Part shown: positions 25,102 through 64,000 of the stretch, in pieces | How positions within the stretch are numbered: position 1 is the stretch's first letter | Layout: each line of letters starts with the position of its first letter | Assembly (NCBI RefSeq): GCF_964213995.1 | Contig: NC_135815.1 | Location: 3,038,001 to 3,102,000 of the forward strand | Source of the DNA: Mustelus asterias | Lineage: Eukaryota | Reading direction: 5' to 3' | DNA: 64,000 nt | Program-made: the position numbers and the translations under genes | Notes under the pieces: generated by a model | Databases searched by the model: none | What the model was told of the DNA's origin: nothing | What the model saw: the letters and a program-made list of their open reading frames with translations, nothing else

Positions 25102-26800
25102 ATAGAGTCAGAGAGGTTTACAGCATGGAAACAGGCCCTTCAGCCCAACTTGTCTATGCTGCCCTTTTATAACCATTAAGCGAGTCCCAATTGCCTGCAT
25201 TGGGCCAATATCCTTCTGTAACCATCTTACTCATGTAACAGTCTAAATGCTTTTTAAAAGAGAAAATTGTACCCGCGTCTACTACTACCTCTGGCAGCTC
25301 ATTCCAGACACTCACCACTCTCTGCGTGAAAAAATTGTCTCTTGGGACTCTTTTGTATCTCTTCCCTCTCATCTAAAACCTATACCCTCTAGTTTTAGAC
25401 TCCCCTACCTTTGCGAAAAGATGTTGACTATTTACTTTATCTATGCCCTCATTATTTTATGCACCTCTATAAGATCACCCCTCTGCTTCCTACGTCCCAG
25501 GGAAAAAAAGTCCCAGTCTATCCAGCCTCTCCTTGTAACTCAAACCATCAAGTCCCCATAGCATCCTCGTAAATCTTTTCTGCGCTCTTTCTAGTTTAAA
25601 AATATCCTTTCTATAAATAGGGTGATTAGAACTGTACACAGTATTCCAAGTGTGGCCTTATCCATGTCTTGTACAGCTTCAACAAGACGTCCCAACTCCT
25701 GTATTCAATGTTCTTAACAATGAAGCCAAACATGCTGAATGCCTTCTTCAGCACCCTGTCCACCTGTGACTCCACTTTCAAGGAGCTATGAACCTATACC
25801 CCGAGATCTCTTTGTTCTGTAACTCTCCCCAATACCCTACCATTAACTGAGTAAGTCCTCCCCTGGTTTGATCTACCAAAATGCATCACCTCGCATTTGT
25901 CTAAATTAAACTCCACCTGCCATTCGTCAGCCCACTGGTCCAATTGATCAAGATCCCATTGCAGTCCGAGATAGCCTTCTTCACTGTCCACTATGCCACC
26001 AATCTTGGTGTCATCTGCAAACTTACTAACCATGCCTCTGATATTCTCATCCAAATCATTGATATAAATGACAAATAAAAGTGGACCCAGCACCGATCCC
26101 TGAGGCACACCGCTGGTCACAGGCCTACAGTTTGAAAAACAATCCTCTACAACCACTTCTGTTTTCTGTCATCAAGCCAATTTTGTATCCAGTTAGCTAC
26201 CTCACCCTGGATCCCATGAGATTTAACCTTATGCAACAATCTACCAGGCAGTACCTTGTCAAAAGCCTTGCTAAGGTCCATGTAGATAACGTTGACTGCA
26301 CTGTCCTCATCTACCTTCTTGGTTACCCCTTCAAAAAACTCAATCAAATTTGTGAGACATGATTTTCCACTCACAAAGCCATGCTGACTGTCCCTAATCA
26401 GTCCTTGCGTCTCTAAATGCCTGTAGATCCTGTCTCTCAGAATATCTTCCAACAATTTACCCATTACAGATCTGAGGCTCACTGGCCTGTAATTCCCAGG
26501 CTTTTCCCTGCAGCCCTCCTTAAACAAAGGCATAACATTTGCTACTCTCCAATCTTCAGGCAGCTCACCTGTGGCTGTCGATGATTCAATTATCTCTGCT
26601 AGGGGACCCACAATTTCTTCCCTAGCCTCCCACAACACCCTGGGATACACTGCATCAGGTCTGGGAATTTATCTACCTTGATGCGCTTTAAGACTTCCAG
26701 CATCTCCGTCTCTGCTGTATGTACACTCCTCAAACATCACTATTTATTTCCCCAGGTTTCCTAACATCCATGCTTTTCTCAACAGTAAATACTGATGATA
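25102..26800 (-). mobile_element. CR1 LINE ORF2 relic
   Basis: ORFs 26147-26650 (PGNYRPVSL, SQHGFV, DLSKAFDKV) and 25794-26156 ([12 protein letters not shown]). Confidence 0.9.
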
Positions 26801-29179: not shown

Positions 29180-32100
29180 TACATAGAAACTAGAAGCAGG
29201 AGGAGGCCATTCGGCCCTTTGGGCATGCTCTGCCATTCATTTTGATCATGGCAGTTCATTGAATTCAATATCTTGATCCCCCCCATCTCCCAATATTCCT
29301 TGATCTTTTTAGCCCCAAGAGCTATATCTAATTTCTTCTTGAAATCAGACAACATTTTGGCCTCAACTATTTTCTGTGGTAGTGAATTCCACACATTCAC
29401 CACCCTCTGGGTGAAGAAATTTCTCCTCACCTCAGTTCTAAAAGGTTTACCCCTTATCCTCAAACTATGACCCCTAGTTCTGGACCCCCCGCCCCTCCCC
29501 AACCTCACCATTAGGAACATTATTTCTGAATCTACCCTGTCTAACCCTGTTAGAATTTTATAATTTTCTATGAGATCCCCTCTCACTCCTCTAAGCTCCA
29601 GTGAATATAATCCTAACTGACTCAGTCTCTCCTCATATGACAGACTTGCCATCCCAAGAATCAGCCAGGTAAACCTTCACTGTACTCTCTGTATAGCAAG
29701 GACATCCTTCCTCACATAAGGACACCAAAACTGCACACAATACTCCAGGTGTGGCCTCACCAACACCCTATACAATTGCAGCAAAGCATCCCTATCCCTA
29801 TACTCAAATCCTCTCGCTATGAAGGTCAACATACCATTTGTCTTCTGTGCTGCCCGCTGTATCTGCGTGCTTACTTTCAGCGACTGATGCACGAAGACAC
29901 CAAGGTCTTGCTGAGTATCCACCTCTCTCAATTTACACCCATTCAAGTAATAATCAGTCTTCCTATTATTGCTACCAAAGTGGATAACCTCACATTTATC
30001 CACATTATACTGCATCTGCCATGCAGATGCCCACACACTCAGCCTGTCCAAATCACACTGAAGCATCTCTGCATCCTCCTCACAGCTCACCCTCCCACCC
30101 AACTTTGTATCATCTGCAAACCTGAAGCTAATACATTTAGTTCCCACTTCCAAATCATTAATATATAATGTGAACAGTTGGGGTCCTAGTACAGATCCAT
30201 GCGGAACCCCATTAGTCACTGTCAGAAAAAGATCCATTTATGGAAGCTCTTTGCTTCCTATCTGCTAACCAGCTTTCTATCTATCTCAAGACATTACCTG
30301 CAAACTGATATGCTTGAACTTTACATTGTAGTCTATTACATGAGACCTGGTTAAAAGCTTTCTGAAAGTCTAAATAAACCACATCCATCCACTGGTTCTC
30401 TTTGGTCAACTCCACTAGTTACATCCTCAAAAAATTCAATAGATTCACAAGCATGATTTCCCCTTTGTAAATCCATGCTGACTTTGTCTGATTATACCAC
30501 TGCCTTCCAAATGCCGAGTTATGAAATCCTCGATAATAGACTCTCGCAACTTCCTCAGTACTGACGTTAGGCTCAATATAGTTCCCTGTTTTCTCTCTCC
30601 CTCTCTTTTTGAATAACAGGCTTACATTAGCTACCCTCCAAACAATAGAAACCCGTCCAGAGTTCAAAGAATTTTGGAAAATAACCACGAATGGATCTAC
30701 AATTTCCAGAGCCACTTCCTTAAGTAGAACATAGAACATAGAACATTACAGCGCAGAACAGGCCCTTCGGCCCACGATGTTGCACCGACCAGTTAAAAAA
30801 AAAAACTGTGACCCTCCAACCTAAACCAATTTCTTTTCGTCCATGAACCTATCTACGGATCTCTTAAACGCCCCCAAACTAGGCGCATTTACAACTGATG
30901 CTGGCAGGGCATTCCAATCCCTCACCACCCTCTGGGTAAAGAACCTACCCCTGACATCGGTTCTATAACTACCCCCCCTCAATTTAAAGCCATGCCCCCT
31001 CGTGCTGGATTTCTCCATCAGAGGAAAAAGGCTATCACTATCCACCCTATCTAAACCTCTAATCATCTTATATGTTTCAATAAGATCCCCTCTTAGCCGC
31101 CGCCTTTCCAGCGAAAACAATCCCAAATCCCTCAGCCTCTCCTCATAGGATCTCCCCTCCATACCAGGCAACATCCTGGTAAACCTCCTCTGCACCCTCT
31201 CCAAAGCCTCCACATCCTTCCTGTAATGTGGGGACCAGAACTGCACACAGTACTCCAAGTGCGGCCGCACCAGAGTTGTGTACAGTTGCAACATAACGCT
31301 ACGACTCCTAAATTCAATCCCCCTACCAATAAACGCCAAGACACCATATGCCTTCTTAACAACCTTATCTACTTGATTCCCAACTTTCAGGGATCTATGC
31401 ACACATACACCTAGATCCCTCTGCTCCTCCACACTATTCAAAGTCCTCCCGTTAGCCCTATACTCAACACATCTGTTATTCCTACCAAAGTGAATTACCT
31501 CACACTTCTCCGCATTAAACTCCATCCGCCACCTCTCGGCCCAACTTTGCAACCTGTCTAAGTCTTCCTGCAAACTACGACACCCTTCCTCACTGTCTAC
31601 CACACCACCGACTTTGGTGTCATCAGCAAATTTGCTAATCCACCCAACTATACCCTCATCCAGATCATTAATAAATATTACAAACAGCAGTGGCCCCAAA
31701 ACAGATCCCTGAGGTACACCACTTGTAACCGCACTCCATGATGAATATTTACTATCAACCACCACCCTCTGTTTCCTATCCGCTAGCCAATTCCTGATCC
31801 AATTTCCTAGATCACCCCCAATCCCATACATCTGCATTTTCTGCAGAAGCCTACCATGGTGAACCTTATCAAACGCCTTACTAAAATCCATATATACCAC
31901 GTCCACTGCCTTGCCCCCATCCACCTCCTTGGTCACTTTCTCAAAAAACTCAATAAGGTTAGTAAGGCACGACCTACCTGCCACAAAACCATGCTGACTA
32001 TCACCTATCAATTCATTACTCTCCAAATAACTATAAATCCTATCCCTTATAATTTTTTCCAACATCTTGCCGACAACAGAAGTGAGACTCACCGGTCTAT

Positions 32101-32270
32101 AATTCCCGGGGAAGTCTCTGTTCCCCTTCTTAAACACTGGGATGAAGATTATCAGGACCTGGAGATTTATCCATCTTCAATCCCATCAATTTCCCCCAAA
32201 TCATTTCTCTAAAAGTGCTGATTTCCTTCAGCTCCTCAATAAAACTTGTTTCTCTCAGAACTTCTGCTAA
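29180..32270 (-). mobile_element. Older CR1 ORF2 relic hosting a younger CR1
   Basis: ORFs 29179-29652, 29677-30237 and 30419-30739; continues after 32136. Confidence 0.8.
30725..32135 (-). mobile_element. Young CR1 LINE with uninterrupted 438-aa RT ORF (5'-truncated)
   Basis: ORF 30821-32137 with RT motifs [32 protein letters not shown]; (ttctatg)n tail. Confidence 0.93.
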
Positions 32271-39424: not shown

Positions 39425-41370
39425 TAAGCAACAGGCGTGCCTAAAAATGAGGTGTCAATCTGGTGAAGCTACCAAACAGGTCTACTTACATGCCAAATGG
39501 CAAAAACAGCAAGTGATAGACAGAGCTGAGCGCTCCCACAACCAATGGATCAGATCTAAGCTCTGCAGTCCTTCCGCATCCAGTCGGGAATGGTGGTGGA
39601 CAATTAAACAACTCATTGGAGGAGGAGGTTCCACAAATATCCCCATCCTCAATGATTGAGGAGCTCACCACATCAGTGTAAAAGATAAGGCTGAAGTACT
39701 CACAGCAATCTTCAGCCAGAAGTGCCAAGTGGATGATACATCTTGGCCTCCTCCAGTGGTTCCCAGCATTTCAGATGCCAGTCTCCAGCCAATTCGATTC
39801 ACTCCACATGATATCAAGAAACGGTTGGAGGCACTGGATACTGCAAAGGCAATGGGCCCTGATAACATTCCGGCAACAGTACTGAAGACTTGCACTCCAG
39901 AACTTGCCGCTCCCCTAGCCAAGCACTTCCAATACAGTTACAACACAGGCATCGACCCAACAATGTGGAAAATTGCCCAAGTATGTCCTGTACACAAAAA
40001 GCAGGACAAATCCAACCTGGCTAATTACTGCCCAATCAGTCTACTCTTGATCATCAGTAAAGTGATGGAAGGGGTCATCAACAGTGCAATCAAGCAGCAC
40101 CTGCTCAGCAATAACCTGCTCAGTGACGTCCAGTTTGGGTTTCGCCAGGGTCACTCAGCTCCTGACCTCATTACAGCCTTGGTTCAAACATGGACAAAAG
40201 AGCTGAATTCCAGAGGTGAGGCAAGAGTGACAACCCTTGACATCAAGGCCGCATTCGACCGTGTGGGGCATCAAGCAACCCTAGTGAAACTGAAATCAAT
40301 GGGTATCGGGGGCAAACTCGCCGCTGGTTGGAGTCATACCTGGTACATAGGAAGATGGTTGTGGAGGGCCAGTCATCTCAGCTCCAGGACATCTCTGCGG
40401 GAGTCCCTCAGGGTAGTGTCCTAGGCCCAACAATCTTCAGCTGCTTCATCAATGACCTTCCCATCATAAAGTCAGAAGTGGGGATGTTCGCCGATGATTG
40501 CACAATGTTCAGCACCATTTGGGACTCCTTAGATACTGAAGCAGTCCATGTTCAAATGCAACAAGATCTGGGCAATATCCAGGCTTGGGCTGACAAGTGG
40601 CAAGTAACATTCGCGCCACACAAATGCCAACCAATGACCATTGCCAATAAGAGACACTCTAACTACCACCCCTTGACATTCAATGGTGTAACCATCACTG
40701 AAACCCCCACTGTCAACATTCTTGGGGTTACCATTGACCAGAAACTGAACCGGACTCACCACATAAACATAGTGGCTACAAGAGCAGATCAGAGGCTCGG
40801 TACACTGCGGCGAGTAACTCACTTCCTGACTCCCCAGAGCCTATACACAATCTACAAGGCACAAGTCAGGAGTGTGATGGAATACTCCCCACTTGCCTGG
40901 ATGGGTGCAGCTCCAACAATACTCAAGAAGCTTTACATCATCCAGGGCAAAGCAGCCTGCTTGATTGGCACCAGATCCACAAACATCCACTCCTTCCACC
41001 ACCAACACTTAGTAGCAGCAGTAGACGCACTGCAGCAATTCACCAAAGATCCTTCGACAGCACCTTTCAAACCCACAACCACTTCCATCTAGAAGGACAA
41101 GGGCAGCACACAAATGGGAACACCACCACCTACAAGTTCCTCTCCAAGCCACTCACCATTCTGACTTGGAAATATATCACCGTTCCTTTGCAGTCACTGG
41201 GTCACAATCCTGGAATTCCCTCCCTAACGGCATTGAGGGTCAACCCACAGAACATGGACTGCAGCGATTCGAGAAGGCAGCTCACCACCACCTTCTCAAG
41301 GACAACTAGGGATGGGCAATAAATACTGGCCAGCCAGCAATGCCCATGTCCCATGAATGAATAAAAAAAC
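39425..41370 (+). mobile_element. LINE family B, longest copy (RT domain, frameshifted)
   Basis: ORFs 39729-40424 (KAMGPDNIP, NYCPISLL, QFGFR, LDIKAAFD) and 40328-41092 ([12 protein letters not shown]). Confidence 0.9.
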
Positions 41371-42091
41371 AAATTGTTAGTCAACGGTATGAAGGGATAT
41401 GGACTTAAGGTGTAGTCTACAACATCAGGTCAGCATCTAACAATTCTGTGATGAGTAACTCCCCAAAGCCACAGGAGTGTGATGGATTGCTCTCCATTTG
41501 CCTGAGAGTGCAGCTCCAACAACATTCAAGATGTTTGACGCCAACCAAGACAAAATATTGTGCAATGAAGAGAGGCTCGTTAGGCTGGGGTTGTTTTCCT
41601 TTGGGCAGATAAGGCTGAAGGGGGACCTGATCAAGGTGTATATAATTCTGAAAGACATAGGTAGGTGGAATGGAACTTTTCCCCTTGGTAGAGGGGTCAA
41701 TAACCAGGGAGACATAGATTTAAGGCAAGGGGCAGGGATTTGAGAAAAAACTTTTTCACCTAGAGGGTGGAACTCACTGTTTGACAAGGGTGTCAGAGGC
41801 TGGAACCCTCACAACATTTAAGAAGCATTTGGATGAGCACTTGAAATACTGTAGCATACAGGCTAGGCACCAAGTGCTGGAAAATGGGATTAGGACAGGT
41901 GCTTGTTGGGCAGTTCAAAAACAATGGACTGAAGGGCCTCTTTCTGTGCTGTAAAACTCTATGATTCTACCAATATCTCAATCTATATTTGGATAAATGA
42001 AGTCCCTCATTAGAATTAAGCTATGATTTTTGCAAGTCCCTGTAATTTCTCTGATTTATTACTTTCTCCTTTACTCTGGCTCAGTTTTTAA

Positions 42092-42553
42092 GATGTGGAG
42101 ATGCCGGCGTTGGACTGGGGTAAACACAGTAAGGGTTTTAACAACACCAGGTTAAAGTCCAACAGGTTTATTTGGTAGCAAATGCCATTAGCTTTTGGAG
42201 CGCTGCTCCTTCGTCAGATGGAGTGGATATCTGCTGTCAAACAGGGCATACAGAGACACAAAATCAAGTTACAGAATACTGATTAGAATGCGAATCTCTA
42301 CAGTCAACCAGGTCTTAAAGATACAGACAATGTCTCACAATTCAATGAGACATTGTCTGTATCTTTAAGACCTGGTTGGCTGTAGAGATTCGCATTCTAA
42401 TCAGTATTCTGTAACTTGATTTTGTGTCTCTGTATGCCCTGTTTGAGAGCAGATATCCAATCCATCTGACGAAGGAGCAGCGCTCCAAAAGCTAATGGCA
42501 TTTGCTACCAAATAAACCTGTTGGTCTTTAACCTGGTGTTGTTAAAACTCTTA
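42092..42553. mobile_element. Penelope-like element remnant arranged as a long palindrome
   Basis: 210-bp inverted arms (42128-42337 / 42346-42555) with an 8-nt loop; flanking direct repeat CTCAGTTTTTAA (42080-42091, 42554-42565); hammerhead-like motif in each arm. Confidence 0.8.
42462..42498 (+). ncRNA. Minimal type I hammerhead ribozyme-like motif (G12A variant); mirrored at 42185-42221 on the minus strand
   Basis: CCAU-CUGACGA-A-GGAGC agc GCUCC-AAAA-GC-UA-AUGG: stem I CCAU/AUGG, core CUGANGA, stem II, palindromic AGCU at stem III. Confidence 0.65.
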
Positions 42554-42815
42554 CTCAGTTTTTAACTCAGTTCTTTTCACAGTAATTTCATTGGTGTTAA
42601 TGTAAGCCTACTTGTGACACTAATAAATAAAGTAACTTAGCACTAAAATAGTGTATTGCATTTTGTGCCCCCTGGCCTGGTATTCCTCTCCTGGTTTTTG
42701 CCTGATATTTTCTCATGACTGTCATGTGACAACTCCCAGAATGATACCCAATTCCTCCCAACATTGACAGGATGATGCTTCTATCTAAACTTTGACACTT
42801 GCCACAACCACATCT

Positions 42816-43117
42816 TTTAATTATTAGTGTCACAAGTCGGCTTACATTAAACTGCAATTAAGTTACAGTGAAAATCCCCTAGTCACCACACTCCGGCGCC
42901 TGTTCGGGTACACTGAGGAAGAATTTAGCATGGCCAATGCACCTAACCAGCACGTCTTTTGGACTGTGGGAGGAAACCAGAGCACCCGGAGGAAACCCAC
43001 GCAGACACAGGGAGAACGTGCAGACTCCGCACAGACAGTAACCCAAGCTGGGAATCGAACCCGGGTCCCTGGCGTTAGCAGGGGATCTGTTAGCAGTGCT
43101 AACCACTGTGCCACCCC
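42816..43117 (-). mobile_element. HE1-like SINE with alternative tail
   Basis: Same family as 16528-16835; a further tail fragment lies on the plus strand at about 42572-42632. Confidence 0.8.
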
Positions 43118-43489
43118 TGTTGATTCCCCCACCTACCACGCAGGTTGAACCGAGCCTCCTCTCCTCTCCCCCTTTGGAGATGGGGACACTTGTTCTCTGC
43201 CCAGTGACGCTGAATGTCACACTGAGAACTGAACTGTAGCAACAAGAGATGGGAATGTAGCCTTGTTCACTGCACAATTCACACATGTGAATGTGGCCAT
43301 GGTGTTTGCAGTGCCTCCAGCCTTGACCTCAGTGCATTGACACAGTGCCCTTGGGGTGGGGGATAGAGATGTTGTTATTGTGTTTCCCCGCACAGGAACA
43401 ACTCAAGGATACACAGCGTCTGATTTGTAACAGTTTTAGTCTCTGCTGTGTGTGTAAGAAAGAAAGGGAAGGTCCACATTGTGCAAGGC

Positions 43490-43880
43490 TGCAGCGGCGG
43501 AGCCCCAACCCCACACACACTGCAACGTCCGCATTCCAAACCTGAGGGACGCCGCCGTTGATATATAAATGCAATCCATACCTGCCAGAGACCCCCGTCC
43601 CGTCCCGTCCCGCCAGGTAAGGAGCCCGCGCGCCGCCACCCACCTGGAAGCCGGGGCCCCTCTCGTGCGCGCGCACTCAGTCAGCGCGCACGCACGGGGC
43701 GCGCTCCCGAGAGGGGGGTCCGGCCAATCAGCGTTGGCGGGAGGGCAGGTATTTGCATACCGTGCCCGTCTCCCTCTCCTGTGGGCACTCGAAAGCCCAT
43801 TGGCCAGAGGCGGCTGTCAGTCAGAGTAGGCAGTGACCAATAGGAATGCGGTGTTGTGAGGCCAGGACCCGCCCTCCCAG
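43490..43880. promoter_or_regulatory. CpG-island promoter, probably bidirectional
   Basis: Only clearly non-repeat CpG-dense tract in the window; TATATAAA 43562; CCAAT about 43723 and 43837; ATTGG about 43799; octamer ATTTGCAT 43751; GC box CCCGCCC about 43868; splice donors pointing in both directions. Confidence 0.75.
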
Positions 43881-43966
43881 AGGCTGTGGATTGTGTCTGT
43901 CACTGGGCTGCACCCTCACATTGCTGCTCCTGTTTCTAACTGCTGTGTGTGTCTTCACACGTCCAG
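43846..43966 (+). other. Candidate first exon of the plus-strand gene (5'UTR or uORF/signal-anchor MRCCEAR..LTLLLLFLTAVCVFTRP)
   Basis: Strong donor CCAG|gtaaat at 43966 directly downstream of the promoter elements; exact start unknown. Confidence 0.55.
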
Positions 43967-45204
43967 GTAAATACTCTCCAATTCTTCTCTGCGCTCTCAC
44001 TGATGTGAAGAGAGGGGGGGGGGGGGGGGTTGATGGTGACTCTGCATTGAGGGAGACATTGGGGGCAGGTTGAAGCTATTGAAAGCTCTCTGTCTGTCTC
44101 GGTAACTGGTTCCAGCCTGTTCACACTGGCTGCTGTTCAGTCAAAGCTCTCCTCATACCTTAATCAATACACTCTGGCAATCTCAAACCACCAGAGAAAC
44201 TGCTGCCAACATCCAGCAGCTCGGCAAAAGCCGAAATCGGAAAGAAGAACAAATTATTTTTTGTTTAAAAATTGGGAGAAGTTGCATTGAAAAAAACACC
44301 TCTGGTGCTCACAGGATGTCCCAGTGCTCTTTGCAGCCGCTGTTGTGTTTTGTTATGTAGAAAACACGACAGGATTTGCACAAACAGCAGTGAGATAATG
44401 GGAGATGTTTTTATTCCTTGTCGTGTTTTGGTTGTTGTGAGTTAAACCTTCACCGGAATACTGAGAACCTGCTTTGCTTCAAAACAGCGTTCATTAGAGG
44501 TTCTGTTAACATCCACACGATTAAGGGGAAAATGGTGCCTGGGTTTAATGTCTTGTCCTGAAAGATGGCACCTCCGACAGTGCAGTAAGTTCCAGTACTG
44601 CCAGCCTTGATGTGAAGTGAGTGTTTCAGGTTGACGGCTTTTCATCAGAATCGGAAAATGTTTTATTTTTATGATATTGATTGTGGGATAAATATTGGCG
44701 AGAACTCAGGTTTTTAAGTAAGTATGGAGGCAGGGAAAAGGGGGAGAGAGAGGACAAAAAGGCGATCTGTGGCAAGCAGAATAGATTGAATGATAAAGCA
44801 AAATGGGACAGGAATATATATACTTGAGACAGAGAGATCAGTAGATTTTCTGATGTATTTGTATAGCTCGTTAATGTGATAAACATCCTAATGTGCTCCA
44901 CAGGATTCTTAGAAAACAAAATATGACACAGCCACATTAGTTAGGGCAGGTGGACAAAGGTTTGGTGAAAAAGGGAGGTTTTAAGGAGTGCCTTAAGTTT
45001 TAAGAGAGAGGTATAGAGGCAGGGAAGTTTGTGAAGGGAGTTCTAGGTCTTGACTGTTGAAAACACAACTTCTCAAATTTAAAATCAAATCCCGACCAGT
45101 TTCCTTATCACAAATTGCTCTTTTTAATGTTTTTCTCTGTCTTTCAGGAGGAAAAATCTTGTCTGTTCAATTGATTGGTTACTGATGATGTGTCACATTC
45201 TGGG

Positions 45205-45294
45205 ATGACTCGCACGGCCATGTTTTTGAATCACTTTGACTATTTTTATTTACGTAGAAAAAAACGGATTAAGAAATTTAGGAAAAGCAAAGAG
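45205..45294 (+). CDS. Candidate first coding segment of an unidentified gene: MTRTAMFLNHFDYFYLRRKKRIKKFRKSKE (exon 45148-45294)
   Basis: Strong acceptor tttttctctgtctttcag|G at 45148; in-frame upstream stop before ATG 45205; donor GAG|gtattg; non-repetitive sequence. Confidence 0.5.
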
Positions 45295-45419
45295 GTATTG
45301 GGTAATACTAAGTGACAGCCATAGCTCCCTGGGTAGTACTCTTCCTTTCTGAGTCAGAAAGTCGTGGGTTTGAGTTGCATTTCATGGACTTGAGCCCAGA
45401 ATCTAGGCTGACTCAGTAA

Positions 45420-48400
45420 TAATCTCAGGATCACTCCCAGTGCCACATGCTAAAGCAGGAATAAGAGAATAGACCGGATGAATGCGTGGCTGGAGAGATG
45501 GTGTAGGAGGGAGGGATTTGAATTCCTGAGGATATGGAGCGTGAAGAAAGGTTGAACAAACATGGATTGTTTTCATTGGAGCATCAGAGGATGAGGAGAG
45601 GAGGGGGGGGGGGGGGGGCGGGGGGGGACCTGATAGAGATTTACAAGATTATGACAGGCTTGGATAGAGTGGATCGTCAGAGTCTTTTTCCCAGGGTTGA
45701 AGGGTCAATTACTCAGGGGGCATCGGTTGAAAGTGAGAGGGGGAAAGTTTAAAAGTGATGTAAGAGGCAATTCTTTCACACAGAGGGTGGTGAATGCCTG
45801 AAACGCGCTGTTGGAGGAGGTGGTGGAAGCAGATTCTATAACAACGTTCAAGAGGCATCTGGATAGATACATGAATAGGCAGGGAATAGAGGGATATGGA
45901 CCACACAGAGACAAGAAAATATTAGATTAGAGAGGCATCTGTGTCAGCACAGACTTGGTGGGCCGAAGGGCCTGTTCCTGTGCTGTACTGTTCTTTGAGA
46001 CATTGGGATCAATTCTGGGTAAGATGGGATCTGTGCAGGCTGGACAGGTTGCACCCCAGCTGGACCAATATCCCTGCAGGGGTATTTGTTCGTGCTGTTG
46101 GGGAGAGTTTAAACTAGAGTGGAGGGGAATGGGAATCTGAGTGGGGAGATAAGAGAGGGAAACAAAAATAGAAGTGAAAGACAGAAGAGTAGAAAACTCA
46201 AGTGGAAGGCAGAAGAAACAAGGGCTAGCAGCAAATAGGCCATAGCACAAAAACAATGTAAAAGTGTTAAAAAGACAAGTCTAAAGGCAGTATGTCTGAA
46301 TGCACAGAGCATTCGCAATAAGGTAGACAAATTAACAGCGGTATACATGGATATGACATGATTGCGATTACGGAGACATGGTTGCTGGGTGACCAAGGCT
46401 GGGAACTGAATATCCAAGGGTATTCAATCTTTAGGAAGGACAGACAAAAAGGAAAGGAGGTAGGTGAGGTTGTTAGTTAAAGATGAAGTCAGTGCGATAG
46501 TGAGAAAAGGTATTGGCTCAGAAAATCTAGATGCCGAATGGGTCTGGGTGGAACGAAGAAGCAACAAGGGACTGAAAACATTAGTGGGAGTTGTCTGTTG
46601 GCCTCCAAACAGTAATGGTAAAGTCGGGGATGTCCTTAAACAGGAAATTAGAAATGCTTGTAAGAAGGGTGACTTTAATCTACGTATATACTGGACAAAT
46701 CAAATTAGCAACAATACTGTGACAGATGAATTCAAGGAGTGTGTACAAGATGTTCTTTTAAGACCAGTATGTTGAGGGACCAACTAGGGAACATGCTATC
46801 CTAGTTTTGATGTGATGCAATTAGAAATGTTTATTTAATAATCTTGTTGTGCAGTGTTCTTTAGGAATCAGCAACTATAATACGATAGAATTTTTCATTA
46901 GTATAGAAGTGACATGGGAAGGCAATGGCCTAGTGGTATTATCGCTAGACTATTAATCCAGAAACTCAGCTAATGTTCTGGGGACCCGGGTTCAAATCCC
47001 GCCACGGCAGATGGTGGAATTTGAATTCAATAAAAAATTTGGAATTAAGAATCTACTGTTGACCATGAAACCATTGTTGATTGTCGGAAAAACCCACCTG
47101 GTTCACCAATGTCCATTTAGGGAAGGAAATCTGCCGTCCTTACCTGGTCTGGCCTACATCTGACTCCAGAGCCACAGCAATCTGGTTGACTCTCAACTGC
47201 CCTCGAGCAACTAGGGATGGGCAATAAATGCTGGCCAGCCAGCAACGCCTAAGTCCAACAAGTGAATAGAATGTGAAGAAGACCAATCAAACTAGGTTCC
47301 AAAATCTGAACAAAGGAAATTATGAAAGTATGAGGCCTGAGTTGGCTAAGATAGATTGGGGAACTTTGTTAAAAGGCATGAAGGTGGACAGGCATTGTCT
47401 AATACTCAAGGAATGAATGTATGCATTGCAAAAACACAAGGAAAATGATCCAAGCATGCCTTACAGAAGAAATAAAGGATGGTTTTAAATCCAAAGAGGA
47501 GTCATATAAAGTTACTCGAAAAAGTAACAAGCCTGAGGATTGGGAGCAGTTTCGTATTCAGCAAAGGAGGACCAAGAGATTTGAGTCAGAGAGCAAAATA
47601 GAGTATGAGAGCAAAAGTGCAAGGAACGTAAAAGTGGATTGTAAAAGCTTCTGTAAGTATATAAAAACAAACGGATTAGCGAAGACAGCCCAAAACAAGA
47701 GATTTTATAATAGAGAACAAGGAAATGGCAGAGCAATTAAACAATTAATTTAGTTCTGTCTTCACAGAGGAAGATATAAATAACTTCCTAGAAATGCTAA
47801 GGAACCAAGGATCTAGTACAAAGGAGGAATTGAAGGAAATTAATATTACTAGAAAAATAGTGTTGGTGAAATTAATGGGACTGAAAGTCATTAAATCCCC
47901 AGGGCTGAGAATGTAATTTCCAGGGTACTAAGAGAGTTGGCCATGGAAATAATGGATGCATTAGTTGTCATCTACAAAATTCTGTACATTATGGAACAGT
48001 CCGACAGATTGGAGGGTGACAAGTGTAACTCTGATATTTAACAAAGGAGGGAGGGCGAAAACAAGGAATTACAGACTGGTTAGCCTAACATCAGTAGTAG
48101 GGAAAATGCTGGAGTCCATTATAAAGGATGCGATAACAGGACACTTAGAAAACATCAACGGGATTAGACAGATCAACATGGATTTATGAAAGGGAAACCC
48201 TGTTTGACAATCCTACTGGAGTTTTTTTTTTGTGGATGTAACTAGTAGAATAGATAAGGGTGAACCAGTGGATGTGGTGTATTGGGATTTTCAGAAAGCT
48301 TTTGATAAAGTCCCAATAAGTGTGCAAAATTAAAGAGCATGGGATTGAGGATAATGTATTAGCATGGATTGAGAATTGGTTCACAGACAGGAACCTGAGA

Positions 48401-49390
48401 GTGGGAATAAATGGGTCTTTTTCAGAGTGGCAGGCAGTGACCAGTGGGGTCCCACAGGGTTCAGTGCTTGGGCCCCAGCTATTCACGATATACATCAATG
48501 ATTTGAATGAGGGAACCAAATGTAATATTTTCAAGGTTGCTAACGACAGGATGTTAAGAGGCTTCAGGGTGATTCTGGAAAGTTGAATGAGTGGGCAAAT
48601 ACATGACAGATGCAGCATAATGGGGATAAATGTGAAATTACCCACTTTGGACAGAGAAACAGAATGGCAGAGTATTATTTAAATAGTGATAGCTGGGAAA
48701 TCCTGACTTGCAAAGGGACCTGGGTGTCCTATTACACCAGTTAATGAAAGCAAGAATGCAGGTACAACAAACAGTTAGGAAGGCAAATGGTATGTTAGTC
48801 TTCATTGCAAGAGGATTTGAGTACAGGAGCAATTGATGTCTTACTGCAGCTGGTGAGACCACACCTGGAGCACTGTGTGCAGTTTTGGTCTCTTTGTCTA
48901 AGAAAGGATATACTTGCCATATAGAGGAAGTTTAGCAAAGGTTCACCAAACTGTTTCCTGGGGTGGCAGGATTGTTGAATGAGGAGAGATTGGGTCAACT
49001 GGACCTGAATTCACTGGAATTTAGAAAAATGAGATTTAATTGAAATGAATAAAATTCTGCCAGGGCTGGACAGACTGGATGCAAGGATGTTGTTTGCTCT
49101 GGCTGGGGGTGCCTAAAACAAAGGTTCACAGTCTCAGGATACAGATAGGCCATTTAGGACTGAGATGAGGAGAAGGTTCTTCGAGGGTGAGGAACCTGTG
49201 GAATTCTGTACAACAAAAGACTGTGGAGACTAAGTCACGAATATATTTAAGAAGGAAATAGATATATTTCTAGACCCTAAAAGATGTCAAAGGTATGGGG
49301 AGAGCGTGGGAGTATGGTGTTGAGATAGAGGATTAGCCATGATCCTGTTGAATGTCGGAGCAGGTTCAAAGGGCTGAATGGCCCACTCAG
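45420..49390 (+). mobile_element. Long degraded CR1 (ORF1 end, endonuclease, RT, 3' UTR) with a nested CR1 tail (45530-45996)
   Basis: CLNAQSIRNKVD endonuclease start about 46290; RNYRLVSLTS; PQGSVLGP; 3' UTR about 49380. Confidence 0.8.
46916..47270 (+). mobile_element. tRNA-derived SINE family B
   Basis: A box tggcctagtggt; B box gggttcaaatccc; LINE-B tail. Confidence 0.82.
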
Positions 49391-49489: not shown

Positions 49490-51330
49490 CAGACATTCAG
49501 GCAACCCTCATCATCCACCACCATCCTTCACCTAGCCAAACCTCTGCATTGACTTGATTCACTTTCTCCAAGTGAAGGGTGTTGCAATGGGAACCCATGT
49601 GGATCCTGGTTGTACCTGGTTGTGGAACATTCTTTGTTCCAGTCCTACTCTGGTACCCTCTATCATCTCTTTTTCTGAAACATTGAGGACTCTTATCAGT
49701 GCTATTTCCTGTTCTGAGCCTGAAGTGAATCCACTATTCTCTTGCTCCATGCTCCATTGGCTCTTCCCTTCCTCTACTTCTCATATCTACTTCGGGGATG
49801 TGCAGTTGACCAAAATCCACGATAAATCTATTGATTCCGACAGTTACCTTGACTGTATTTCCTCACTTTCTCAGTAAGGAATTGTTTTAGTTTGAGTCTC
49901 TGTCCAATCTAAATGGATATGCTTCCAATATGTTCTCCTTTCTCCCCAACCGACGATTCCCCAAATATGATTGACAGGGCTAGTACCCTGCCCCACCCTC
50001 CTGACCTTGTCCTATCTCCTCCCTCCCAGGATCACAGTGGGGTTTCTCTTGTCCTCACCTTCCAACCCATCAGCTTCCATGGATCCTCCTCCATCATTTC
50101 CGCCAATTCCAGTGCATTCTCACCACTGAACACATCTGTTCAGTCCGCAAGCATGATCTCAAGCTCCTGCTATCCTGTCACTTTAATTCACCCCCACACT
50201 GTCGTTCACACCTGGGACCCCTACACTCTTCCAATGTGATCAACAAAGCTTGACGAATAGCAGGTTGGAGGCAGGTTGCTAGTGGTGTGCCGCAGGGATC
50301 AGTGCTTGGTCCTCTGCTCTTTGTGATTTTTATTAATGACTTAGAGGAGGGGGCTGAAGGGTGGATCAGTAAATTTGCTGATGACACCAAGATTGGTGGA
50401 GTAGTGGATGAGGTGGAGGGCTGTTGTAGGCTGCAAAGAGACATAGATAGGATGCAAAGCTGGGCTGAAAAATGGCAAATGGAGTTTAACCCTGATAAAT
50501 GTGAGGTGATTCATTTTGGTAGGACTAATTTAAATGTGGATTACAGGGTCAAAGGTAGGGTTCTGAAGACTGTGGAGGAACAGAGAGATCTTGGGGTCCA
50601 TATCCACAGATCTCTAAAGGTTGCCAGTCAAGTGGATAGAGCTGTGAAGAAGGCCTATAGTGTGTTGGCTTTTATTAACAGGGGGTTGGAGTTTAAGAGC
50701 CGTGGGGTTATGCTGCAACTGTACAGGACCTTGGTGAGACCACATTTGGAATATTGTGTGCAGTTCTGGTCACCTCACTATAAGAAGGATGTGGAAGCGC
50801 TGGAAAGAGTGCAGAGGAGATTTACCAGGATGCTGCCTGGTTTGGAGGGTAGGTCTTATGAGGAAAGGTTGAGGGAGCTAGGGCTGTTCTCTCTGGAGCG
50901 GAGGAGGCTGAGGGGAGACTTAATAGAGGTGTATAAAATGATGAAGGGGATAGATAGAGTGAACGTTCAAAGACTATTTCCTCGGGTGGATGGAGCTATC
51001 ACAAGGGGGCATAACTATAGGGTTCGTGGTGGGAGATACAGGACGGATATCAGAGGTAGGTTCTTTACGCAGAGAGTGGTTGGGGTGTGGAATGGACTGC
51101 CTGCAGTGATAGTGGAGTCAGACACTTTAGAAACATTTAAGCGGTTATTGGATAGGCACATGGAGCACACCAGGATGATAGGGAGTGGGATAGCTTGATC
51201 TTGGTTTCAGATAAAGCTCGGCACAACATCGTGGGCCGAAGGGCCTGTTCTGTGCTGTACTGTTCTATGTTCTATGTTCTAATAGCACTTTTCAGTCTTC
51301 CAGACTCAACACTGTTCAATAATTTCAGAT
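49490..51330 (+). mobile_element. Old Penelope-like RT relic interrupted by CR1
   Basis: HFLQVKGVAMGT motif in ORF 49554-49877; PLE-like terminal segment resumes after 51281. Confidence 0.55.
50263..51280 (+). mobile_element. Young CR1 LINE, 5'-truncated, open 303-aa ORF
   Basis: ORF 50287-51198; (ttctatg)n tail; TSD AATAGCA at 50256-50262 and 51281-51287. Confidence 0.93.
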
Positions 51331-60805: not shown

Positions 60806-61697
60806 ACCTTGTCCTCTAAAAGTCTTCTACTAGCAGTTTCTAATTAAATGCCTCTTCTATTTTTATCCTATTCAATTTCTCCACTACCGCCTCCTGTACT
60901 GAGACCTTGGCAGCACCCTCTCCTCCAGTGAGGACAGGTCAGCAGTTACCTAATTAAGTTCAATTAAATCTGGAGTTTAAAGCTAGTTTCAGTAATGGTG
61001 GTCACGAAACTGCCAGATTTGTCATTAAAAACCTGACCGGTTCATGAATATTCATCGGGGAAGGAAACCTGTCGACTGTAGCTGTTTTGGACTGCATGTG
61101 ACTCCAGGCCCACAGCAATGACTTTGACTTTGAACTGCCTTCTGCAATATTCTGAAGGGTAATTAGGGATGGGCACTACAGTGATGCCTATGAATAAATT
61201 TTAAACAGAGTTTTCATCCCCTTATTTTCTCTCACTTGGTTTTTCCCTCCCCTTTTCTTAATGTTCCATGTTTTTCAAACTTACAAAAATAAATGTTTAT
61301 CTTTTAGTTTTCAGTTGCGACGAAGAGTTGCACACCCAGAATGTCAAGTATAGGGCACATCTCTTTATAGACGCTGACTCACCTGCTTTTATTTCCAGAT
61401 TTTAAAAAAGAAATTGGTTTTATTTATACATGCATACACACGCTGCAGGCCGAGAAATTTTGGTGGTTCAGTGAGGAAATCATTTAGAATGGAAGTGTTC
61501 AGGTCCCAGCTTCTGATTGCAAAAGGACAGAATGTTTTCCCTTTTCACTTCCAAGTTTTAAGACCTGTTAACATTCCTGCAGGTGCATACCTGTGTGGTG
61601 TGACATAAAGCTTCTTTCTTTGGGATGAACAAATGTAGAGGAGAGAAACAGGCCACAGGATTAATGAAACAGGCTAACACAAGGCGAGATTAAACTT

Positions 61698-61861
61698 GAT
61701 GTGGAGATGCCGACATTGGATTGGTGTGGGCACAAGAAGAAGTCTCACAACACTAGGTTAAAGTCCAACAGGTTTATTTGGAATCATGAGCTTTCGGAGC
61801 GCTGCCCCTTCATCAAGTGAGTCACTCTCCTGATGAAGGAGTGGCGCTCCGAAAGCTCGTG
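61698..61861. mobile_element. Mini Penelope-derived palindrome with two back-to-back hammerhead motifs
   Basis: Same gatgtggagatgcc..ggttaaagtccaacaggtttatttgg leader as 42092; CTGATGAAGGAGTGGCGCTCCGAAAGCTCGTG at 61830-61861 and an inverted copy at 61785-61819. Confidence 0.75.
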
Positions 61862-62350
61862 TTTGAGATCCGAGCCACTACGGTGGTGTCGTCAGCAAAC
61901 TTGAAAATTGAATTGGAGGGGAATTTGGCCGCATAGTCATAGGTGTATATGGAGTATAGTAGAGGGCTGAGAACACAGCCTTGTGGGACACCGGTGTTGA
62001 GGATGATCGTGGAGGAGGTGTTGTTGCGTATCCTTACTGATTGATTATGGTCTGTGAGTTTGGAAGTTCAGGATCCAGTCGCAGAGGGAGGTGCCGAGGT
62101 CCAGGCCACGGAATTTGGAGATGAGTTTCGTGGGAATAATAGTGTTGAAGGCTGAGCTGTAGTCAATAATTAGGAGTCTGACATAGATGTCCTTGTTATC
62201 TAGGTGTTCCATGGTTGAGTACAGGGCCAGGGAAATGGCGTCTGCTGTGGACCTGTTGCGGCGGTAGGCCAACTAGTGGATCCAGGCAGTCCAGGAGGCT
62301 GGAATTGATTTGTGCCATGACTAACCTTTTGAAGCACTTCATAATGATGA
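61862..62350 (-). mobile_element. Rex1/Babar LINE RT fragment
   Basis: [43 protein letters not shown]; FADD motif near 61890. Confidence 0.85.
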
Positions 62351-63069
62351 AGTTGCTGGCAAACTTGATATTTATTGCCCATTCACAGTTGTCTTGAGAA
62401 AGTGCACTTTCTACTTTGTAGCAATTTTGGGGGGGAAAAGTGAGTGGCTTTAGCAGTTGGATGCCACCACATTTGGATAGGTGCTGAGAGGCTGTTTCTT
62501 CCTTGCTGCAGAGTTCAGACGTGGAGATCATAGTATCAGGATAAGGGATTGGCCATTTAGGACTGAAATGAGGGGAGTTATGTACCTTGGGAATTCTCCA
62601 TCCCAGAGAGTTGTGGATGTTCGGTTGTTGACTATATTCAAGACTGAAATCGATAGATCTTTGGATACTGTGGGTGGAATTTTGTGGCCTCTCCCACCGG
62701 CCAACTTGTCCAGTCTCACCAAAGTCTTTCCGTATTTCCTGGCCCTGCCCCCAGCATGACGGGGTTGTAAAGTTCCACCCTACAGGAATTGAGGGATATG
62801 GAGATTGTGTAGGAAAGAGGATTTGATGTAAATTTTCACCCGTTATCTTTACTGTTTATTCCTGTTCCTATTTCTTGGGTACCTATGTTCAGATTAAGGA
62901 AGGACAAGAGTAAACAAGTTGTTTTCTACTGGTTCAGTTTCATAGCCACTTTTGCGAGTGCCAACTATTTATTTCCAAATTCTTTAGACTAAAATTAAAT
63001 TCTCAAACTGCCCCTGGAGGGATTTAGACTCTTGTTCTCTTGGTTTATTAGCCCACTAGGCTAATGTGT

Positions 63070-64000
63070 CAACAAGTCGTGGTTGTAGAGGGTTGTTTTT
63101 CAAACTGGAGGCCTGTGACCAGCGGTGTGCCTCAGGGATCAGTGCTGGGTCCACTATTATTTGTCATTTATATTAATGATTTGAATGAGAACATAGGAGG
63201 CATGGTTAGTAAATTTTCAGATGACACCAGGATTGGTGGCACAGTGGACAGTGAAGAAAATTATCTCCAATTGCAACGGGATATTGATCAATTGGGCCAG
63301 AGGGCTGACAAATGGCAGATGGAGTTTAAATTAGACAAATGAGAGGTGATGCATTTTGTAGATTGAACCAAGGCAGGACTTACTCAGTTAATGGTAGGGC
63401 GTTGGGGAGAGTTACAGAACAAAGAGATCTCGGGCTACATGTTCATAGCTCCTTGAAAGTGGAGTCACAGGTGGACAGAGTGGTGAAGAAGGCATTCGGC
63501 ATGCTTGGTTTCATCAGTCAGAACATTGAATACAAGAGTTGGGACGTCTTGTTGAAGTTGTACAAGACATTGGTAAGGCCACACTTGGAATACTGTGTGC
63601 AGTTCTGGTCACCCTATTATAGAAAGGATATTATTAAACTAGAAAGAGTGCAGAAAAGATTTACTAGGATGCTACCGGGACTTGATGGATTGAGTTATAA
63701 GGAGAGGCTTGATAGACTGGGACTTTTTACTCTGGAGAGTAGGAGGCTGAGGGGTGATCTTATAGAGGACTATAAAATAATGAGGGGCATAGATCAGCTA
63801 GATAGTCAATATCTTTTCCCAAAGGTAGGGGAGTCTAAAACTAGAGGGCATAAGTTTAAGGTGAGAGGGGAGAGATACAAAAGTGTCCAGAGGGGCAATT
63901 ATTTCACACAGATGGTGGTGAGTGTCTGGAACAAGCTGCCAGAGGTAGTAGTAGAGGCGGGTACAATTTTGTCTTTTAAAAAGCATTTAGATAGTTACAT
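63070..64000 (+). mobile_element. CR1 LINE relic running off the window
   Basis: ORF 63064-63342 [15 protein letters not shown]; same subfamily as 25102-26800. Confidence 0.88.

Follow-up and report, generated by a model that had tools for sequence, protein, structure and literature searches.

A head-to-head Penelope-like element insertion in Mustelus asterias and what its family suggests about the formation of inverted repeats

Introduction

A long and nearly perfect palindrome is found in the part of the Mustelus asterias genome analyzed here, a window of 64,000 nucleotides on contig NC_135815.1. The locus raises the question of how such a structure formed and whether it does anything for the genome that carries it. 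The original prediction read it as the paired ends of a Penelope-like element (PLE) with a minimal hammerhead ribozyme motif in each arm, and proposed that it could act as a self-masking hairpin or, next to a promoter, as a source of double-stranded RNA. Structures of this kind have been reported before. An inverted 5'-truncated copy with a tail of 30-40 bp on one end has been described for PLEs (PMC8557442), rotifer examples with target site duplications (TSDs) are on record (PMC3846280), and minimal hammerheads located about 100-700 bp apart on opposite strands were noted earlier (PMC4209133). The step at which the inverted repeat forms has been called undefined (PMC8557442).

Results

Anatomy of the palindrome

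The palindrome has the complete anatomy of a PLE insertion. Its features are listed in Table 1. Upon alignment the two arms differ at 5 of 210 positions, exactly the near-perfect match that had been estimated by eye, and they are separated by an 8-nt loop (42338-42345, CAATTCAA). In an inverted-repeat search the match is longer, 216 nt at 97%. The DNA fold of the palindrome reaches -256.7 kcal/mol (z = -49.9), and none of 100 shuffled sequences was as stable. A transcript through the insertion is predicted to form one long hairpin from either strand, with energies of -399.5 and -382.6 kcal/mol. The flanking 12-bp direct repeat that had been claimed, CTCAGTTTTTAA, is present as two identical copies, and the 36-nt family tail is found on the left arm only.

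The turn between the arms is not derived from the element. In a BLAST comparison to a natural copy, the PLE family sequence starts at 42333 in the left arm and at 42350 in the right arm, so the true centre of the palindrome is 16 nt of non-family sequence that includes the innermost 4 bp of both arms. The family sequence upstream of the start point does not resemble this junction. About 206 nt of pseudo-LTR remain in each arm, and the locus has no open reading frame (ORF).

Table 1. Features of the insertion and its surroundings, in window coordinates
Feature	Position	Strand	Remark
Left TSD copy, 12 bp	42080..42091	+	identical to 42554-42565
PLE tail, 36 nt, left arm only	42092..42127	-	matches the 3' extension of the family
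Left arm, 5'-truncated pseudo-LTR	42128..42337	-	family-derived from 42333 down
Minimal type I hammerhead motif, G12A at 42196	42185..42221	-	from sequence
Non-family junction, 16 nt: 4-bp stem and 8-nt loop	42334..42349	.	resembles short element pieces beside the turn
Right arm, 5'-truncated pseudo-LTR without tail	42346..42555	+	family-derived from 42350
Minimal type I hammerhead motif, A12 at 42487	42462..42498	+	from sequence; architecture as in PMC4209133
Right TSD copy, 12 bp	42554..42565	+	first 2 nt overlap the end of the right arm
CpG-rich promoter-like stretch, outside the insertion	43250..44000	+	context only; CpG o/e 0.73-0.75

Another inverted repeat lies close to the insertion. 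Its 35-nt halves (42597-42631 and 42816-42850) are the two ends of a different, very abundant repeat with high read depth. The copy at about 42816-43115 on the minus strand resembles a tRNA-derived SINE.

Identity and abundance of the family

Judged by its sequence, the family is an endonuclease-bearing (EN+) PLE, and it is very abundant. A search of the 3.68-Gb genome with the left arm gave 878 candidates, and the best of the 40 that were scored are 94-98% identical. The 31-nt hammerhead core has 11,015 exact matches in the genome, and a 29-nt word nearer the 3' end has 171,007.

The coding evidence comes from fragments of sister copies. A reverse transcriptase (RT) domain lies upstream of the same end (RVT_1, E = 2.7e-9 and 8e-10) and scores above the cut-off in two of the four fragments scanned; the translations contain the motif YIDD. 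A GIY-YIG-like domain (PF01541) scored E = 2.7e-4 and 21.6 bits, slightly under the Pfam cut-off of 22.6. A pair of cysteines within the GIY-YIG core and two histidines after it (CCHH) were recognized by eye in L010, L014, L018, and L019, and the linker between RT and endonuclease reads CHSNLCKTC (CX4CXXC) in L010 and L018. The order of domains is RT, CX4CXXC linker, and GIY-YIG-like domain, and the family ORF terminates about 110 nt before the start point of this insertion. The locus is, as had been predicted, a PLE pseudo-LTR that is inverted and truncated at its 5' side and that contains minimal type I hammerheads.

The CX2-5CxxC linker and the GIY-YIG-like CCHH domain of the sister copies are common to the Neptune and Nematis clades (PMC8557442), a likeness that rests on motifs and does not separate Neptune from Nematis. 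The locus shares head-to-head arms, a tail on one arm (36 nt), a TSD, and 5' truncation with other complex insertions of EN+ PLEs (PMC8557442, PMC3846280, PMC8969392). It differs from them in having no ORF, with about 206 nt of pseudo-LTR per arm, and in belonging to a far more abundant family; its TSD is 12 bp, while those of the rotifer examples are 8-10 bp.

Usual form of insertion

Head-to-head pairs are the usual product of this family. A position-ordered sample was built from 99 of the first 100 hammerhead matches on contig C1, which gave 86 loci after four overlapping duplicates were removed. In 50 of these loci there are 51 adjacent head-to-head pairs, and this count is a lower bound because only gaps of up to 60 nt were counted. 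The tail is on exactly one arm in all 51 pairs, and the same is true of all 83 pairs in an enlarged set (151 loci, nine overlapping duplicates dropped). Twelve of the 151 loci had been picked as pairs, so the enlarged set was not used for pair frequency. TSDs of at least 7 bp flank 60 of 67 pairs, compared to 20 of 1,318 mismatched controls, and the commonest length is 12 bp (18 of 67). The arms of the present locus are 97.6% identical, against a median of 96.4% for 20 pairs that share at least 150 nt.

The view of this locus as something special is not supported, as its layout is the one that most of the sampled loci have. The insertion is ordinary and of a known kind, with a head-to-head arrangement that has already been published, and it is most likely without a function of its own.

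Several further observations concern the points at which arms begin and turn. At least seven other loci (L005, L015, L023, and L031-L034) turn at the near-palindromic word ACATTGT as this one does, with short junction patches. Among loci L035-L124 (contig C1, 0-31 Mb), 52 of 152 arm starts are concentrated in a segment of 20 nt immediately 5' of hammerhead stem I, compared to about 2 per 10 nt further upstream. A GATATC palindrome is located in this segment, and the cluster may reflect either an RNA start or RT that stops once it has passed the ribozyme hairpin. Starts at the cut site are uncountable in this sample because an intact core was required in one arm. L058 (C1:4400358-4403388) is a nested or double insertion in which opposite arms lie 400 bp apart and both are G12A. 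The window itself contains a second, older head-to-head hammerhead stub at 61690-61865, from a sister subfamily and at 78% to the reference copy. GAAA is kept in the two motifs of this stub, and its hairpin is about 45 bp.

Hammerhead motifs

Both arms contain the predicted minimal hammerhead, and both copies carry the same core change. Each motif is 37 nt long (Table 1). In the right arm it consists of a 4-bp stem I, CUGACGA, an extra A, a 5-bp stem II, A12-AAA, and a palindromic GC, with a predicted cut after 42494. Sequence and predicted fold agree with the published minimal architecture (PMC4209133) in stems I and II, the extra nucleotide after A9, G10.1-C11.1, and the palindromic stem III. 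Stem II is shorter than the 7-8 bp of the Schistosoma families (PMC4209133), and both copies here are G12A. The CUGACGA part is intact, and GAAA reads AAAA in both arms, so the core as a whole is not. The substitution at position 12 is a CpG change. G12 serves as the general base of the hammerhead, and in a minimal hammerhead its change to A reduces the rate more than 500-fold (PMC2553840). The change therefore probably inactivates both ribozymes at this locus. The Infernal search that had been suggested as a check came out negative, with no Rfam hammerhead model matching at E<=10 in 41000-43500, a scan that covered this A12 locus only. The eight matches at that threshold in the same interval are to seven miRNA-precursor models and one snoRNA model, all under their gathering scores. 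A miRNA precursor was considered and rejected: the top match, MIR841, scores 102 bits where the gathering threshold is 200, and the sub-threshold matches mirror the long hairpin.

The idea of a self-masking hairpin stands in part. Either strand does fold as one hairpin, but with G12A in both motifs there is probably no active ribozyme for it to mask. Since the motifs are on opposite strands, a single transcript contains one sense motif and one antisense motif, and no same-sense dimer can form in cis. In a related element cleavage is dispensable for insertion in vitro (PMC11167929).

The family as a whole retains the core. The original prediction depended on the family consensus having it, and position 12 is G in 5,918 of 6,579 exact family copies and A in the other 661 (10.0%). 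Both cores are intact in 17 of 44 family pairs and one core is intact in 24. Twenty-nine A12 loci were examined, and in all 16 cases where an A12 arm has an adjacent partner, the partner keeps G, suggesting that A12 is mostly decay after landing. Pairs with A12 in both arms do occur elsewhere, with five among the first 100 A12 matches listed. Set against 12 G/G pairs in the first 100 G12 matches, this makes A/A pairs roughly 3-4 times commoner than independence predicts (p ~0.01, a rough figure). Arm-to-arm conversion could account for the shared G12A, and an equal A/A excess would be expected from common age or methylation. At this locus the change may have arisen twice, been copied from one arm to the other, or come from the template. 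A ribozyme-dead sub-lineage as the source was rejected: A12 copies are not linked to the other rare alleles of the left arm (810A in 0 of 13 and 978C in 1 of 25 scorable copies).

How the palindrome probably formed

The locus is very probably a non-coding, 5'-truncated, head-to-head PLE end that likely arose from two nick-primed cDNAs joined together and that most likely has no function. By this route the element's enzyme would nick both target strands 12 bp apart, and one cDNA would be primed at each nick. The tailed cDNA would start at the outer RT start site and the tail-less cDNA at the inner one. Both would stop near ACATTGT and be joined head to head with the 16-nt patch, and after landing the arms would have gathered their five private changes.

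Biochemical work on another PLE provides a precedent. With purified Poseidon protein, both target strands are cut and extended, and the two RT start sites that it uses lie on either side of the tail (PMC11167929). This combination fits one tailed and one tail-less cDNA joined head to head, with the limit that in vitro double-strand extension is known from an element of another clade than this family. The Poseidon element PAc of Anolis carolinensis resembles the present family in its pseudo-LTR hammerhead and in having two classes of 3' end that bracket the tail; Penelope and Poseidon elements differ from the present family in being without the CX2-5CxxC linker. No explanation of inverted insertions was found in the text of PMC11167929 that was examined. 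Likewise a two-priming model for PLE inversions was not found in the titles and abstracts searched, in which the older, subscription PLE literature is thinly covered.

The published interpretation for rotifer Penelope elements is fold-back self-priming (PMC3846280), in which the copied strand folds over at a short palindrome and goes on with itself as the template. It would leave the same dead insertion. Turns do cluster at short palindromic words, and the 5' ends of the two arms are within 20 nt of each other in 47 of 83 pairs. At the present locus the arms do not disagree at any family-polymorphic site, G12A is present in both, and the five positions at which they differ are private changes, so this locus cannot separate two primings from fold-back. 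Evidence against fold-back comes from the other pairs of the family. No tail can be added during fold-back if the first strand is without one, yet among the 83 pairs the arm with the greater 5' reach is the tail-less one in 21 and the tailed one in 15. Partner arms are also discordant at 44 of 442 family-polymorphic non-CpG positions (10%), against a background of 1.6%, and at 14 of 122 polymorphic positions (11.5%) when transversions are considered, against 0.5%; the excess is thus 6-20 times background. At least one discordant polymorphic position is found in 21 of 31 well-covered pairs.

Partner arms are nevertheless much more alike than chance pairs. Shuffled pairs are 31% discordant, compared to 10% for true partners, and rare alleles are common to partners about ten times as often as in shuffles (33 of 8,217 sites), a result that fold-back or a single template also predicts. 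Both haplotypes were found elsewhere for only three of the ten pairs that have at least two discordant sites, which also speaks against two templates. The two arms of a pair are close relatives, with a number of differences above what a single template would predict.

Overall the differences between partner arms fit two cDNAs with separate primings better than they fit the published fold-back, which appears unlikely as the origin of this insertion. Later gene conversion or hypermutable sites could yield the excess of discordance, because these same data served to define the polymorphic sites, and the unequal arm lengths could reflect later central deletions. Two lines of evidence were set aside. 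Three of the arm differences here had looked like family polymorphisms, as would be expected from two templates, and this proved to be an effect of BLAST ascertainment; in the ordered copies the alleles occur in 2 of 71, 0 of 101, and 1 of 136. Discordance at a 2-bp indel was dropped as well, four of the five discordant pairs having come from the BLAST-picked set.

The extension to PLEs in general is more tentative. It is possible that PLE palindromes consist of two separately primed cDNAs and that a sizeable share of them come from two templates of an active subfamily, in which case each landing can recombine two elements.

Neighborhood and the regulatory idea

The nearby CpG-rich, promoter-like stretch is present by base composition. 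From about 43250 to 44000 the GC content is 0.59-0.62, and the distance from the right arm is 0.7-1 kb. A TATA-like word occurs near 43562 and a donor-like CAG/GTAAGG near 43617 (43560-43620); a second donor-like site is seen at 43960-43970, and an exon-like segment at 45149-45296 contains an ATG together with an open frame, short and basic, that runs to a donor. The signals between 43560 and 45296 are possibly the first exons of a plus-strand gene. A scan of 150 ORFs of at least 55 amino acids (all 67 on the plus strand after 43400, and 83 of 159 on the minus strand before 44200) for a neighboring gene gave seven RT fragments and nothing else. These RVT_1 fragments, at 25797-26668, 29680-32176, 48320-48583, 50254-51195, and 63052-63339, are probably decayed LINEs.

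It is very improbable that the palindrome has been co-opted as a regulatory hairpin, either through antisense transcription that yields a 210-bp double-stranded RNA for Dicer or ADAR, or through a cruciform that affects the promoter. Either strand does fold very stably as one hairpin, a CpG-rich stretch is close by, and rotifer Penelope elements give rise to small RNAs (PMC3846280). Against this the copy is unremarkable within its family, with ordinary divergence, an ordinary TSD, and mutations in both ribozyme cores. More than half of the sampled family loci are palindromic (50 of 86), so chance alone is expected to place one near a promoter. Such insertions may, as a class, contribute long hairpins to silencing, which is not a trait of this particular locus.

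An assembly artefact, from a read folded back on itself or from two repeat copies joined in error, can be dismissed almost entirely: although no read contig from four runs crosses the centre of the palindrome and the best one, coming from the left flank, extends only 20 nt into the element, such an error would not be expected to produce five private arm differences, a tail on one side, and a 12-bp TSD without mismatch, which all accord with the family rule.

Discussion

The locus itself is of little importance. The value lies in its family, whose young head-to-head insertions number in the thousands within one genome and provide a test of how PLEs make inverted repeats. An origin of the palindromes in two cDNAs with separate primings, if true, would take the place of the published self-priming and would tie the rule of one tail per pair to the start sites and double-strand extension observed in vitro. 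If the two cDNAs were in addition copied from two templates, insertion would be a step at which PLEs recombine. Palindromes of this type could, taken together, supply the genome with a large amount of long hairpin RNA.
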